Below the pieces are notes generated by a model, which did not search any database, was not told where the DNA came from, and was given only the letters and a program-made list of their open reading frames with translations. Position numbers and translations under genes: made by a program. This document shows, in pieces, positions 10,566 through 44,390 of a stretch of 64,000 bases of DNA (position 1 is its first letter; every line of letters starts with the position of its first letter). Location of the stretch: NCBI GenBank assembly GCA_013334575.1, contig JAAXXG010000004.1, positions 18,464 through 82,463 of the forward strand. The letters are read 5' to 3'. Origin of the DNA: Candidatus Moraniibacteriota bacterium. Lineage in GTDB: Bacteria; Patescibacteriota; Minisyncoccia; Moranbacterales; UBA1568.

Positions 10566-10592
10566 AAAACCCCGTTTTGGGGTCTTGTGATT
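10566..10592 (-). terminator. terminator hairpin downstream of tRNA-Ser
   Basis: The minus-strand sequence reads CAAGACCCCAAAACGGGGTTTTTT. Confidence 0.4.
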
Positions 10593-10599
10593 TCCGTTG

Positions 10600-10686
10600 A
10601 GGAAAGGGAGGGATTCGAACCCTCGAGGCCCTTGCGGGCCTGCCGCTTTTCGAGAGCGGTACCTTCAACCACTCGGTCACCTTTCC
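10600..10686 (-). tRNA. tRNA-Ser (anticodon CGA)
   Basis: On the minus strand: GGAAAGG/CCTTTCC 7-bp acceptor stem. D-arm ACC-GAGTGGTTGAA-GGT. Anticodon stem CCGCT/AGCGG with loop CTCGAAA (CGA). Long variable arm. T-arm AGGG-TTCGAAT-CCCT. Confidence 0.85.
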
Positions 10687-10740
10687 TATATGTCTAACAG
10701 TATATACTATTGTTCGAAATGATCCTCCCATTTCCGGTCA

Positions 10741-10854
10741 GGGATTCGCCCCGCATGCGCGGGGCGCCCGGCGAATGCCCGGGCGAACCCTCGAGGCCCT
10801 TGCGGGCCTGCCGCTTTTCGAGAGCGGTACCTTCAACCACTCGGTCACCTTTCC
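10741..10854 (-). repeat. tRNA-Ser-derived partial copy with a 38-nt two-hairpin insertion in the T-loop
   Basis: 71 nt identical to the 5' part of tRNA-Ser up to GGGTTCG. Then an insert (CCCGGGCATTCGCCGGGCG + CGCCCCGCGCATGCGGGGCG). Then AATCCC. The sequence after that does not restore the acceptor stem. Confidence 0.7.
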
Positions 10855-10869
10855 TATATTCAACTGACA

Positions 10870-10968
10870 ACCTCTACAACGAACGACCGGCGGCTACGGA
10901 CTCGCACAGGTGAGCGCCTTTCACCAGAGGCTGACCAGCCTTTGGCTGGCAACTACTCGGCTACCTTT
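10870..10968 (-). repeat. degenerate tRNA-like fragment (third copy) starting with the same GGAAAGGT acceptor/D-arm opening
   Basis: The minus-strand sequence begins GGAAAGGTAGCCGAGTAGTTG like tRNA-Ser but does not fold into a canonical cloverleaf. Confidence 0.4.
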
Positions 10969-11050
10969 CCTTCGTTTCCATAACGCCTCCAGTTGTTGTA
11001 CTATATTTAAAGGAATCGGGCAAATCGTCCGAACCGTGCGTTAAGACTGA

Positions 11051-26090: not shown

Positions 26091-26196
26091 CCGGGATGTC
26101 CGTAGACTGGACGAGAAGCGGCTCGATATATCGAAGGATGGATTTTTTCGGAAGCGGCGTCCGGACTTTCGTAGGGAGCCCTTTGTCGAAGTTTAT

Positions 26197-26225
26197 CGGG
26201 ACAGGGTATAGTGGTAGTACGTCTG
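26197..26225 (+). repeat. partial duplicate of the 5' end (acceptor, D-arm and start of anticodon stem) of tRNA-Pro
   Basis: cgggacagggtatagtggtagtacgtctg versus tRNA cgggacatagtatagtggtagtacgtctg. Confidence 0.6.
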
Positions 26226-26241
26226 GGGACAATAACGCTGT

Positions 26242-26312
26242 CGGGACATAGTATAGTGGTAGTACGTCTGCTTTGGGAGCAGATAGTCCCGGTCCGATTC
26301 CGGGTGTCCCGA
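26242..26312 (+). tRNA. tRNA-Pro (anticodon TGG)
   Basis: CGGGACA/TGTCCCG acceptor. D-arm GTAT-AGTGGTA-GTAC. Anticodon stem TCTGC/GCAGA with loop TTTGGGA. T-arm CCCGG-TCCGATT-CCGGG. The T-loop has C at position 55, which is unusual. Confidence 0.7.
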
Positions 26313-26360
26313 CAGCGGGATTGTCCGACGGTCTCCAGGGTCGTCGTCGCTCCGCAGGAG

Positions 26361-26426
26361 AGATAGTCCCGGTCCGCCCGAGCATTCGCCGGGCGTCCGG
26401 CGTATGCCGGACGATTCCGTGTATCC
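26361..26426 (+). repeat. tRNA-Pro-derived fragment (anticodon-stem 3' side to T-loop) interrupted by a two-hairpin insertion
   Basis: AGATAGTCCCGGTCCG, then CCCGAGCATTCGCCGGGCG, then TCCGGCGTATGCCGGACG, then ATTCCG. The first hairpin element is the near-exact reverse-strand equivalent of the insert at the tRNA-Ser locus. Confidence 0.6.
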
Positions 26427-26432
26427 TGACAA

Positions 26433-27247: not shown

Positions 27248-27319
27248 GCGGGTGTCGTATAGTGGCTATTATATCAGCCTTCCAAGCTGAGGATGTGGGT
27301 TCGATTCCCATCACCCGCT
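27248..27319 (+). tRNA. tRNA-Gly (anticodon TCC)
   Basis: GCGGGTG/CACCCGC acceptor. Anticodon stem TCAGC/GCTGA with loop CTTCCAA. T-arm GTGGG-TTCGATT-CCCAT. Confidence 0.85.
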
Positions 27320-27591
27320 CAGTGCAGACAAAAGAGGCTCCGTGAAGGAGTCTCTTTTGTCTGTTATGAGGCGATGGGAATCGAACGGGCAGAAGCGAGT
27401 CTCCGAGCGTCGATGAATGCGACCGGATAGGAAGCATTCAGCGCTGCCCCGGGCTACGAGGCACCGTCAGGTGCCGAGGACGAAATTCCCATCACCCGCT
27501 CAGTGCAGACAAAAGAGGCTCCGTGAAGGAGTCTCTTTTGTCTGTTATGAGGCGATGGGAATCGAACGGGCAGAAGCGAGTCTCCGAGCGT
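27304..27591 (+). repeat. tandem direct repeat: two 107-nt copies, each carrying the last 16 nt of tRNA-Gly from the T-loop onward plus 91 nt of flank, separated by a 74-nt hairpin-containing spacer
   Basis: Copies at 27304-27410 and 27485-27591, both beginning ATTCCCATCACCCGCTCA. Each contains a terminator-like hairpin GACAAAAGAGGCTCCGTGAAGGAGTCTCTTTTGTC. The spacer ends with GGCACCGTCAGGTGCC GAGGACGAA. Confidence 0.75.
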
Positions 27592-44280: not shown

Positions 44281-44390
44281 CGTCCCGTACCGCTTCCGAC
44301 CGCCCCGGCGGATGCCGGGGCGGTTTTGGTATTCCTTGCGGAGCTCGGGTTCTTCACGATAGAGTATGAGAAAGTCGACTTGTTTCGAAT

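Follow-up and report, generated by a model that had tools for sequence, protein, structure and literature searches.

Why does an intact tRNA gene lie next to a perfect copy of its own 5´ part, and why does this copy break off in the TΨC loop to make room for a double hairpin? This question is raised by the tRNA-Ser(CGA) locus of a Candidatus Moraniibacteriota genome, which was analysed here within a stretch of 64,000 nucleotides (termed the window). The best explanation, to which we assign a probability of about 60%, is that the locus is an ORF-deleted relic of a small selfish GIY-YIG nuclease cassette of tRNA genes, which replaced the 5´ part of the gene. A cassette of this kind is apparently undescribed: we found no published description of GIY-YIG genes arranged with tRNA fragments, including in the literature on CPR bacteria, UPF0213 and YhbQ.

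The features of the window are collected in Table 1; related loci and contigs from genome and metagenome assemblies (NCBI, JGI, ENA, Logan) are designated with L-numbers. The intact minus-strand tRNA-Ser of the original prediction was found by ARAGORN and Rfam alike. The copy upstream of it had been described as a perfect 71-nt repeat of the tRNA 5´ part. Its identity is indeed 100%, but the repeat search (family D1) showed it to be longer, with 76 nt including a 5-nt upstream flank (10616-10691 = 10784-10859), located 168 nt upstream of the intact gene. The last five nucleotides of the spacer (10687-10691, ATATA) are part of this perfect repeat. As predicted, the copy stops after GGGTTCG, so that the breakpoint is G57|A58 in GGTTCGAATCC, a highly conserved sequence of an essential gene. 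Both hairpins of the insert were confirmed, but its length is 37 nt and not 38 nt, since a shared CG had been counted twice; an alternative parse yields 35 nt with a flanking CG duplication. After the insert AATCCC resumes and the 3´ acceptor strand is missing, both as originally seen, and without this strand a spliceable tRNA is ruled out. A resumption of 5–8 tRNA nucleotides after the insert is also present in L144, L051, L125, L147, L150 and L153.

Table 1. Positions of the tRNA genes, tRNA relics and double-hairpin elements (DHE) in the window.
Feature	Position	Strand	Evidence and remarks
Intrinsic-terminator-like hairpin and T-run	10566..10586	-	Promoter/terminator scan and sequence
Intact tRNA-Ser(CGA)	10599..10686	-	Functional-looking; ARAGORN; Rfam tRNA 56.7 bits, full length
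54-nt spacer	10687..10740	-	Site of the GIY-YIG ORF in relatives, as placed by alignment to L144 (full-length, orthologous)
AATCCC	10741..10746	-	6 nt of T-loop and T-stem following the insert (tRNA positions 58-63); no tRNA homology beyond
37-nt DHE	10747..10783	-	CCCGGGCATTCGCCGGGCG + CCCCGCGCATGCGGGGCG, at the centre of the T-loop TTCGAA
Displaced tRNA-Ser copy	10784..10859	-	Positions 1-57 (10854..10784) plus 5 upstream bases; 100% identity to the intact gene
Older relic upstream of the displaced copy	10893..10970	-	Repeat search family D2, 86%; fold
30-nt copy of the tRNA-Pro 5´ end	26196..26225	+	93% identity; just upstream of the intact gene; family D1
Second DHE copy	26377-26413 within 26361..26431	+	Covariance model 70.5 bits; repeat families D2, D3

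The displaced copy was not called by ARAGORN, and its Rfam tRNA score of 18 bits is below the gathering threshold of 29. At gathering as well as permissive thresholds Rfam returned only the four tRNAs, and no intron or other RNA family; weak matches (sX4 and others) merely mirror the tRNA-like sequence. The copy keeps a native-type upstream region with the motif GTTGTCAGTTG at about 10866-10876, which it has in common with the single-copy relatives L158 and L161. This argues that the upstream piece is the displaced resident 5´ part of the gene.

The window contains further tRNA relics. A third tRNA-like fragment had been proposed upstream of the displaced copy; it is real, but shorter than originally stated and tRNA-like only at 10970..10950, where it resembles tRNA-Ser positions 1-21 (19 of 22 bases equal the tRNA 5´ end). 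Its D-loop is broken by a double hairpin of a second family, CCAGCCAAAGGCTGG+TCAGCCTCTGGTGA (10949..10921), which is also present in L129, and its 3´ end reads AAGGCGC...CCTGTGCGAGTCCG (10920..10893). Homologous fragments with a broken D-loop were found upstream of tRNA-Ser in L047, L051, L121, L155 and L156. We read this fragment as what is left of an older D-loop insertion, with another hairpin family. The predicted near-identical insert at tRNA-Pro is likewise present. It interrupts a degenerate tRNA-Pro 3´ half, which follows downstream of the intact gene (26242-26313); the tRNA-Pro sequence adjoining it extends over 16 nt (100%) on one side and 20 nt (85%) on the other, and CG is found on both of its sides. 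A duplication of tRNA-Gly(TCC) in the window has its breakpoint in the T-loop too, without a hairpin.

The search with the covariance model revealed only two DHE copies in the window (75.5 and 70.5 bits), the next match scoring 16.8 bits. In agreement with this, the 19-nt motif named in the original prediction occurs exactly twice, and two or more matches were obtained in only 2 of 100 shuffles. The DHE is a separate, conserved and pseudo-palindromic module for which the model scores both strands: in the tRNA-Ser copy the minus strand obtains 75.5 bits and the plus strand 51.4 bits. Stem 2 is paired to 98.8% among 21 copies and contains four pairs with compensatory changes; compensatory pairs are also present in stem 1, where the signal is blurred by a register difference of one nucleotide between subfamilies. 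The observed covariation was reached by none of 500 shuffles. Since the folding energies are modest (z-scores -1.8 to -2.8), the structural argument rests on the covariation.

The element is not restricted to this genome or to tRNA-Ser, but recurs in approximately 28 independent assemblies of Patescibacteria and at ten or more different tRNA genes. A first genome-wide pattern, CCCGNGCATTCGCCGGGCG, gave true matches in 6 of 119 stretches; the others were chance matches in GC-rich coding DNA, in which the pattern encodes a PGHSPG-type motif. To these six matches in genome contigs the unbiased pattern scans added 22 of 23 loci in metagenome contigs. All 28 scanned DHE loci are situated in tRNA loops beside an intact tRNA (Ser, Pro, Tyr, Thr, Lys, Arg, Gln or Val), in the T-loop or, for one locus family, in the anticodon loop. 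No copy outside tRNA-derived sequence was detected in these scans of genome and metagenome contigs, and viral contigs contained no match to the element. The DHE occurs in both orientations relative to the tRNA, always at TTCG|AA, and is antisense in about half of the loci.

With its covarying hairpins and a 5´ part kept 100% identical, the interrupted copy might be taken for a functional RNA: a tRNA that is split or contains an intron, or else a regulatory or leader RNA that resembles a tRNA and has the hairpins as processing or stability signals. It is probably transcribed, as no terminator separates it from the tRNA: the terminator-like site in Table 1 is the sole one and lies 3´ of the whole tRNA-Ser array, so that fragment, spacer and tRNA-Ser could be co-transcribed. 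A functional RNA is nevertheless highly improbable, given the absent acceptor strand, the low Rfam score, the missing ARAGORN call, the lack of a match to an Rfam intron or other RNA family and the relatives that carry a single plain tRNA at this locus. In addition, an insertion at the RNA level cannot explain why the element is antisense in so many loci. A tRNA intron of the group I or bulge-helix-bulge type was ruled out by the antisense copies, the missing 3´ exon and the Rfam result, and an RNA-level origin through a reverse-transcription stop at m1A58 or through an intron was rejected because both orientations occur.

The comparison with related genomes provided the link to a nuclease. 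Many relatives contain a gene for a GIY-YIG nuclease of about 85 amino acids (UPF0213/Slx1-like; Pfam PF01541, 63 bits) in the spacer, ending 2–6 nt before the intact tRNA. This ORF adjoins the element in L051, L121, L125, L129, L130, L133, L134, L136, L137, L144, L145, L147, L150, L153 and L162. In 23 homologues the Tyr, Gly, Arg, His and Glu of the catalytic site (Y3, Y5, Y16, G18, R26, H30, E50) are conserved. Read in tRNA sense, a full-length cassette consists of the tRNA from position +1 to the loop, the GC-rich double hairpin in either orientation, 5–8 tRNA bases, a leader of about 20 nt with a ribosome-binding site, the nuclease gene, 2–6 nt and the complete tRNA. The spacers range from 14 to 330 nt across loci, and the nuclease is the only ORF in them. 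The tRNAs at which cassettes with the GIY-YIG gene were observed are limited to Ser, Tyr, Asp and Trp. Besides Patescibacteria (CPR), at least one lineage of Smithella has such cassettes.

The orthologous tRNA-Ser(CGA) locus could be identified beside the same methyltransferase and SBP genes, and the comparison of related genomes suggested in the original prediction revealed it in several states. It is full-length, with the GIY-YIG ORF, in L144 and L145, ORF-less in the window and in L124, and empty in L159 and L160, thus showing presence/absence polymorphism among related genomes. In L158 only 3´ remnants are left, and the tRNA-Ser of L155 is chimeric (5´ GGAGAGA, 3´ CCTTTCC, with an A7·C66 mismatch). 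In the alignment the 264-nt ORF of L144, which encodes a protein of 87 amino acids, maps together with its leader to a gap at the window spacer, which is homologous to the ORF-less spacer of L124. A regex scan, tblastn and the alignment to L144 detected no GIY-YIG ORF or coding remnant in the window, and the global alignment to L144 showed no convincing homology inside the spacer. A possible C-terminal remnant ('...FEQ*'), seen by eye, was judged too weak. Since relatives have the nuclease gene, the ORF-less copy in the window points to a relic and not to an active member, and its link to the cassette rests on the architecture and the orthologous locus.

For a metagenome-assembled genome an assembly artefact has to be considered, in which a repeat was mis-joined or duplicated, all the more as the relative L157 has a scaffold gap at exactly this repeat. 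However, independent assemblies from NCBI, JGI, ENA and Logan show the same architecture, with sequence variants and compensatory changes, which leaves an artefact hardly credible.

It might also be that the double hairpin is an independent MITE- or REP-like palindromic element that inserts at TTCGAA-type loops and survives only in dead tRNA fragments, while the fragments and the GIY-YIG genes are unrelated to it and result from nuclease-induced tandem amplification or old integrations. The two orientations and the possible flanking 2-bp CG duplication would fit such an element, as would its presence at many tRNA types without a GIY-YIG ORF and the additional single hairpins in dead copies (the D-loop of L134, the third fragment of the window). 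The hairpin-free T-loop break of the tRNA-Gly(TCC) duplication and the 158-nt contig L098, which contains the same T-loop with and without the element, also agree with a separate insertion. We consider this unlikely, because in full-length loci the hairpin is located exactly at the junction of the displaced tRNA part and the nuclease leader, across tRNAs, loops and phyla, a pattern that independent insertion would not give, and because the unbiased scans found no copy outside tRNA-derived sequence. Elements of the IS200/IS605 type have subterminal hairpins and a TnpA (HUH) partner, and insert 3´ of a fixed tetranucleotide without a duplication. The hairpins seen here and the site TTCG|AA agree with this type, but the insertion sites of other loci differ, and a CG duplication is possible.

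A third possibility is that the tRNA copies are attL/attR remnants of an integrase-driven island or prophage in the T-loop that was later deleted. The T-loop is a known crossover sublocation of tyrosine integrases (reportedly described by Williams in 2002), and the Pro and Gly loci duplicate the 3´ part of the tRNA, as integrases do. Partial tRNA copies beside intact tRNA genes are typical scars of integrase islands, but these are 3´-part duplications left by kilobase-scale integrase elements (bioRxiv 10.1101/2022.07.05.498093), and neither is found at the Ser locus, where the 5´ part is duplicated. The original statement that the window lacks an integrase holds for ±10 kb around the Ser locus, where no integrase or recombinase Pfam family was listed. 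Together with breakpoints that in some cases are in D- and anticodon loops, the viral contigs without a match and the recurring architecture of 14–330-nt spacers with the 85-aa GIY-YIG protein as only ORF, this makes an integrase origin quite improbable. Thus, the original suspicion of a mobile element carrying a tRNA part was borne out, but the partner appears to be a GIY-YIG nuclease cassette instead of an integrase with its attP.

How could a GIY-YIG cassette have generated the locus? The nuclease would cut a conserved loop of the tRNA gene, similar to the break that SegB of phage T4 introduces at GGTTCRANTCC, and repair or Campbell-type homologous recombination with a tRNA homology arm might install the cassette such that the tRNA survives. 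In the window the insertion point would be the TΨC loop, between G57 and A58 in the centre of the palindrome TTCGAA. The working tRNA would then be composed of a new 5´ part, imported with the cassette, and the resident 3´ part. A later loss of the nuclease ORF would have left behind the displaced 5´ part, the double hairpin, 6 nt of the T-arm and the 54-nt spacer. In the displaced fragment the target is interrupted by the double hairpin, so that this fragment would no longer be cleavable; the hairpin may also be a cis site bound by the nuclease. Recombination between the two identical 5´ parts could excise the cassette precisely. The tRNA-Pro locus would be a mirror-image version, in which the 3´ part is concerned.

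Several observations do not fit easily with this cassette. The intact tRNA-Ser retains an unbroken TTCGAA, so that self-cleavage is not obviously prevented. The insertion sites vary between T-, anticodon and D-loops and have little in common beyond G|A, which speaks against a single, simple enzyme with sequence specificity. The ORF-less copies at Pro, Thr, Lys, Arg, Gln and Val contain no trace of a GIY-YIG gene. For the 5´ parts in the window to be 100% identical, the donor must have been very close, or gene conversion must have followed. That the duplicated part begins at tRNA position +1 is likewise without explanation in the cassette reading.

Contig L146 (544 nt, k141) has a terminal repeat of 141 nt and therefore contains a closed path of 403 nt (5´ part, DHE and GIY), the junction of which is absent from the chromosomal arrangement in L145; ERZ27299975 and ERZ27300082 are the samples from which L145 and L146 derive. 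Read from the contig sequence, this closed unit implies a circle or a tandem array. The mini GIY-YIG protein and the double hairpin might even constitute an unrecognised class of cellular mobile elements that integrates via a tRNA homology arm (Campbell-type or break-induced), forms a transient circle of about 400 bp or a tandem array, uses the hairpin as cis recognition or immunity site and mobilises in trans, as non-autonomous derivatives, ORF-less tRNA fragments with hairpins such as those of the window. This extension is tentative, and we regard it as rather doubtful.

If the cassette reading is true, essential tRNA genes of CPR bacteria, whose genomes are tiny and whose tRNA genes are often present in a single copy, can harbour a selfish cassette since it restores the tRNA. 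The reading would also explain the arrays of tRNA fragments and the GC-rich palindromes in CPR genomes that confuse tRNA annotation and break assemblies, and would provide a concrete role for the widespread but uncharacterised mini GIY-YIG proteins of the UPF0213 type. In this reading, chimeric tRNAs like that of L155 point to the cassette as a driver of horizontal replacement of tRNA gene parts as well.

Among the closest parallels is SegB of phages T4 and T6, a free-standing GIY-YIG homing endonuclease in a tRNA gene cluster. Its recognition motif is GGTTCRANTCC in the TΨC stem-loop (RAWTSGAAC in the complementary strand), its breaks have overhangs of 2 nt, and its activity leads to the amplification of tRNA segments in tandem (PMC2330249; PMC13096335). 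In both cases a GIY-YIG gene is located among tRNA genes, and the SegB motif is the motif that is split in the window. The 2-nt overhangs would fit a CG duplication, and the segmental amplification is comparable to the tandem partial tRNA repeats. However, SegB is a phage protein of about 220 amino acids with a DNA-binding domain, encoded between intact tRNA genes, whereas the cassette protein is a single-domain UPF0213/Slx1-like protein of about 85 amino acids in cellular chromosomes, and the cassette interrupts a tRNA gene, for which it supplies a new 5´ part, while a double hairpin marks the junction. The similarity of its sequence to phage homing endonucleases is weak (about 20 bits). If our reading is correct, tRNA targeting of the SegB type extends from phages to cellular chromosomes.

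Double-hairpin elements are also known from fungal mitochondria, where they have been found beside mobile endonuclease ORFs as well. Those of Allomyces and Schizosaccharomyces (Paquin et al. 2000, as summarised in PMC10085805 and PMC2800124) are, by description, short, GC-rich, composed of two adjacent stem-loops, multi-copy, variable in position and suspected to be mobile. The elements studied here likewise have two adjacent GC-rich stem-loops, with a structure that is more conserved than the sequence, and occur in multiple copies at different positions. The fungal elements differ in being mitochondrial and located mostly in intergenic regions, introns and rRNA genes, and no tRNA-loop target is reported for them. 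In Allomyces, the atp6 gene is reportedly a hybrid (described by Paquin and colleagues in 1994) that arose from an endonuclease cassette carrying a piece of the host gene. As proposed for the cassettes described here, an endonuclease ORF travels with a foreign segment of its target gene, the hybrid gene is functional and the resident segment is left as a fragment; the analogue in our data is the chimeric tRNA of L155. The target in Allomyces is protein-coding and its 3´ part was replaced, whereas here a tRNA gene is affected, in its 5´ or 3´ part. If true, the cassette would be a bacterial counterpart of the mitochondrial double-hairpin elements.

The window has four tRNA genes. Beside one of them, tRNA-Ser(CGA), lies a non-functional relic, a member of a recurrent family of tRNA-splitting cassettes with a double hairpin and a GIY-YIG gene. 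The locus contains a direct repeat of 76 nt with 100% identity (10616-10691 = 10784-10859), made up of the first 71 nt of tRNA-Ser (position 1 to G57, standard numbering) and 5 nt of upstream flank. This repeat and the sequence itself confirm the original prediction of a T-loop-interrupted tRNA copy beside the intact gene; the predicted 71-nt copy is correct for the tRNA part, the repeat being longer by the flank. The double-hairpin element (DHE) in the T-loop comprises 37 nt and not the predicted 38 nt, because the shared CG had been counted twice; an insert of 35 nt with a flanking CG duplication is an equally good reading. The interrupted copy lacks the 3' acceptor strand, was not called by ARAGORN and scored 18 bits with the Rfam tRNA model (threshold 29). 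Of the two, only the intact gene is followed by a terminator-like hairpin.

The near-identical insert anticipated at tRNA-Pro is indeed present there. Since fragments are located both upstream and downstream, tRNA-Pro is flanked on both sides. The tandem repeat at tRNA-Gly(TCC) includes the downstream terminator and is free of the double hairpin. Of the window's four tRNA genes, three carry duplications with a boundary at or close to the T-loop. The third tRNA-like fragment, originally placed at 10870-10968, has a tRNA-Ser-like 5' part as described, but its extent had to be corrected: only 10970..10950 is tRNA-like, followed by a double hairpin in the D-loop. Homologues broken in the D-loop are located upstream of tRNA-Ser in five relatives (L047, L051, L121, L155, L156), and the same hairpin family is present in L129. 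As a relic, the third fragment is older; the later insertion displaced it upstream. Runs of the heptamer GTTGTYA (GTTGTTAGTTGTCAGTTG...) were seen upstream of the tRNA-Ser genes of this clade (L157/L158 ~2020-2200, window ~10860-10885, minus strand) and could be a promoter-region repeat.

Two pattern scans, with patterns free of any tRNA sequence, were made for the DHE. When a single genome per species was scanned, most matches were due to chance and lay in GC-rich coding DNA, and six were true DHEs, nearly all labelled Moranbacteria/Moraniibacteriota; in the scan of metagenome contigs, 22 of 23 loci carried a true DHE. In both scans all true copies were located in tRNA-derived loops, nearly all in the T-loop (TTCG|AA) and those of one locus family in the anticodon loop of tRNA-Ser(CGA) (CTCG|AAA). 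Wherever the flank was long enough, the copy was found to adjoin an intact tRNA of matching identity (Ser, Pro, Tyr, Thr, Lys, Arg, Gln, Val). No DHE was found in viral contigs. In about half of the loci the DHE is reversed relative to the tRNA (GGATTCG|...|AACC), and since both orientations occur, insertion at the RNA level or an intron origin is ruled out. Insertion into DNA at the TTCGAA palindrome is consistent with this.

The structure of the element is conserved. When 21 distinct copies were aligned, stem 2 proved to be 98.8% paired, with compensatory changes in four pairs (e.g. C-G 11, U-A 8), and stem 1 has compensatory pairs as well; none of 500 shuffles reached the observed covariation, and slid controls collapsed. 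Within the window, the covariance model built from this alignment matched the DHEs at the Ser and Pro loci (75.5 and 70.5 bits) and nothing else. It scored either strand of both, thus the DHE is pseudo-palindromic. The DHE hairpins resemble terminator stems without the T-run; a terminator-like hairpin in the window (CCGCCCCGGC-GGAT-GCCGGGGCGG then TTTT, 44296-44326, plus strand) shares their stem style and GNAT loop.

Read in the tRNA sense, DHE loci are of two mirror-image types. In type A, to which the Ser locus of the window belongs, the order is tRNA from +1 to the loop, DHE, 5-8 more tRNA bases, spacer and intact tRNA. Type B, which the Pro locus approximates, has the intact tRNA, a spacer, a few T-arm bases, the DHE and tRNA positions 58-76. 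Many type A spacers consist of an ORF of ~85 aa, which ends 2-6 nt before tRNA +1 or overlaps the tRNA start. The ORF encodes a GIY-YIG domain (Pfam PF01541, 63 bits); among solved structures, the UPF0213 proteins BH0048 and EF2693 are closest to it, with the SLX1 nuclease domain next. Its 188 homologues come mainly from Patescibacteria and Smithella. Conservation extends to the predicted catalytic residues (Tyr, Tyr, Gly, Arg, His, Glu), as seen in 23 homologues. A search of the window for this ORF found none. A second, more divergent GIY-YIG gene (~42% identical) was observed in the same tRNA neighbourhoods (L051 7100-7333, L162 2366-2614); in L162 it is located within a split tRNA-Trp with one long hairpin at the anticodon loop.

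Features of the window and of related loci (L-numbers, loci or contigs from other assemblies)
Feature	Position or locus	Strand	Remarks
tRNA-Ser(CGA), intact	10599-10686	-	ARAGORN; Rfam 56.7 bits
Interrupted tRNA-Ser copy, end of 5' part	upstream of intact gene	-	terminates ...GAGGGTTCG
DHE, 37 nt	10783..10747	-	CCCGGGCATTCGCCGGGCG then CCCCGCGCATGCGGGGCG; from sequence
T-loop resumption AATCCC	10746..10741	-	tRNA homology ends after these bases
Spacer, 54 nt	between interrupted copy and intact tRNA-Ser	-	from sequence
Older fragment, tRNA-Ser-like positions 1-21	10970..10950	-	from sequence
Different double hairpin, D-loop of older fragment	10949..10921	-	CCAGCCAAAGGCTGG+TCAGCCTCTGGTGA; from sequence
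AAGGCGC...CCTGTGCGAGTCCG	after D-loop hairpins of older fragment	-	from sequence
DHE copy 2, nearly identical	26377-26413		inside degenerate tRNA-Pro 3' half
tRNA-Pro 5'-end copy, 30 nt, 93% identical	26196-26225	+	directly upstream of intact tRNA-Pro; breaks off in anticodon stem
tRNA-Gly(TCC)	27248-27320	+	gene followed by tandem repeat
Perfect tandem repeat, 107 nt, period 181	27304-27410, 27485-27591	+	start exactly at A58 of tRNA-Gly(TCC) T-loop
Inverted T-arm/acceptor copy, 17 nt	27370-27386, 27551-27567	opposite	GTTCGATTCCCATCACC; one per tRNA-Gly repeat unit
Type A with ORF	L051, L137, L121		Ser GGA
Type A with ORF	L125, L130, L136, L153		Ser CGA, anticodon loop
Type A with ORF	L129, L133, L134		other Ser
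Type A with ORF	L162		Tyr in T-loop; Trp in anticodon loop
Type A with ORF	L147		Uhrbacteria, tRNA-Asp D-loop
Type A with ORF	L150, 600-2350		Smithella (non-CPR lineage), tRNA-Ser(TGA) anticodon loop; directly downstream of serS (seryl-tRNA synthetase), upstream of tRNA-Ser(TGA)
Ser(CGA) locus, empty	L159/L160		single plain tRNA-Ser(CGA), no fragments
Ser(CGA) locus, full-length	L144/L145		[5' part]-DHE variant-AATCCC-22 nt with AAGGAG-87-aa GIY-YIG-4 nt-[tRNA]
Ser(CGA) locus, ORF-less	window, L124
Ser(CGA) locus, 3' remnants only	L158
Ser(CGA) locus, scaffold gap at repeat	L157
Chimeric tRNA-Ser(CGA)	L155 374-461	-	5' strand GGAGAGA (as L144), 3' strand CCTTTCC (as window)

Orthologous tRNA-Ser(CGA) loci were fetched via the neighbouring methyltransferase, L144/L145 via the nuclease, and form a polymorphic series from empty to full-length and ORF-less states. 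In the alignment of the window with L144 the ORF falls exactly in the gap of the window spacer, which contains no convincing coding remnant. L124 shares the ORF-less state, and its Pro locus lies ~13 kb from the Ser locus as in the window. The displaced fragment retains the GTTGTCAGTTG-type upstream region that precedes the single tRNA of relatives; it is therefore the resident 5' part, and the 5' part of the working gene came with the cassette. Downstream of the tRNA, L144/L145 carry two displaced 3' ends with an acceptor sequence of the window type. The L155 acceptor strands stem from two lineages, making this a chimeric tRNA gene, in which G4·U69 forms a wobble pair and A7·C66 is mismatched. 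Downstream of tRNA-Ser(CGA), L144 (2360-2720) and L158 (reverse strand) contain displaced 3' ends in arrays (…AATCCCTCCCTTTCCTCA with a terminator). Each end is preceded by other hairpin pairs, e.g. ATATGGAAATGTGAACGATTTCACGTTTCCATGT and CCCCGGCCCGCAGGGG, thus several hairpin families are in play. In L144 the tRNA array is separated from the methyltransferase gene by ~300 nt of non-coding, apparently structured DNA (1480-1800).

L146 (ena:ERZ27300082 k141_1139978) is a MEGAHIT k141 contig of 544 nt, whose 141-nt terminal repeat equals the assembler's k. The contig closes into a 403-nt path ([5' part-DHE-AATCCC-leader-GIY-YIG]), in which the downstream 5' part runs into the DHE, a junction that the same organism's chromosome, as arranged in L145, does not have. 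The reads therefore support a circle or a tandem array, and either form would be a sign of cassette activity. Recombination between the two 5' parts would generate a circle and restore the plain tRNA.

The architecture, the GIY-YIG association, the polymorphic series, the chimeric tRNA, the closed-path contig and the hairpins conserved in structure and present in both orientations are the observations from which a mechanism can be proposed. The nuclease might cut tRNA genes at conserved loops, and repair, or else a single crossover via the cassette's tRNA homology arm, would put the cassette in place; the type A order is exactly what such a crossover would yield. The hairpin could render the displaced fragment uncleavable and/or serve as binding site for the nuclease. 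A transcript from the native tRNA promoter would span fragment, hairpin and ORF, with RNase P freeing the tRNA, and later deletion of the ORF would lead to the state seen in the window. The mechanism gives no reason for the duplicated part beginning at tRNA position +1 or for the intact tRNA being spared from cleavage, and the insertion sites, located in three different loops, have little more than G|A in common. The DHE copies at Pro, Thr, Lys and other tRNAs have no ORF; they may once have had one or may be mobilised in trans.

A recent survey of tRNA introns in Patescibacteria does not mention the tRNA-splitting arrangement, and our literature search, with incomplete coverage, found no description of it; an earlier one is possible, but the cassette family appears to be undescribed. 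The nearest known category is that of free-standing homing-endonuclease cassettes. Some mitochondrial endonuclease cassettes bring with them a piece of the host gene and give rise to hybrid genes, as in Allomyces atp6, a logic that matches that of the tRNA cassettes. Double-hairpin elements suspected to be mobile have been described in fungal mitochondria (PMC10085805, PMC2800124). The gene of SegB, a GIY-YIG homing endonuclease of phages T4/T6, lies amid tRNA genes. The recognition sequence of SegB is GGTTCRANTCC, its cuts have 2-nt 3' overhangs, and it causes tRNA-containing segments to be amplified in tandem (PMC2330249, PMC13096335). Although SegB is a larger phage protein not encoded inside a split tRNA, whereas the cassette protein of ~85 aa is, and the sequence similarity between the two is weak, SegB is by analogy the closest functional precedent.
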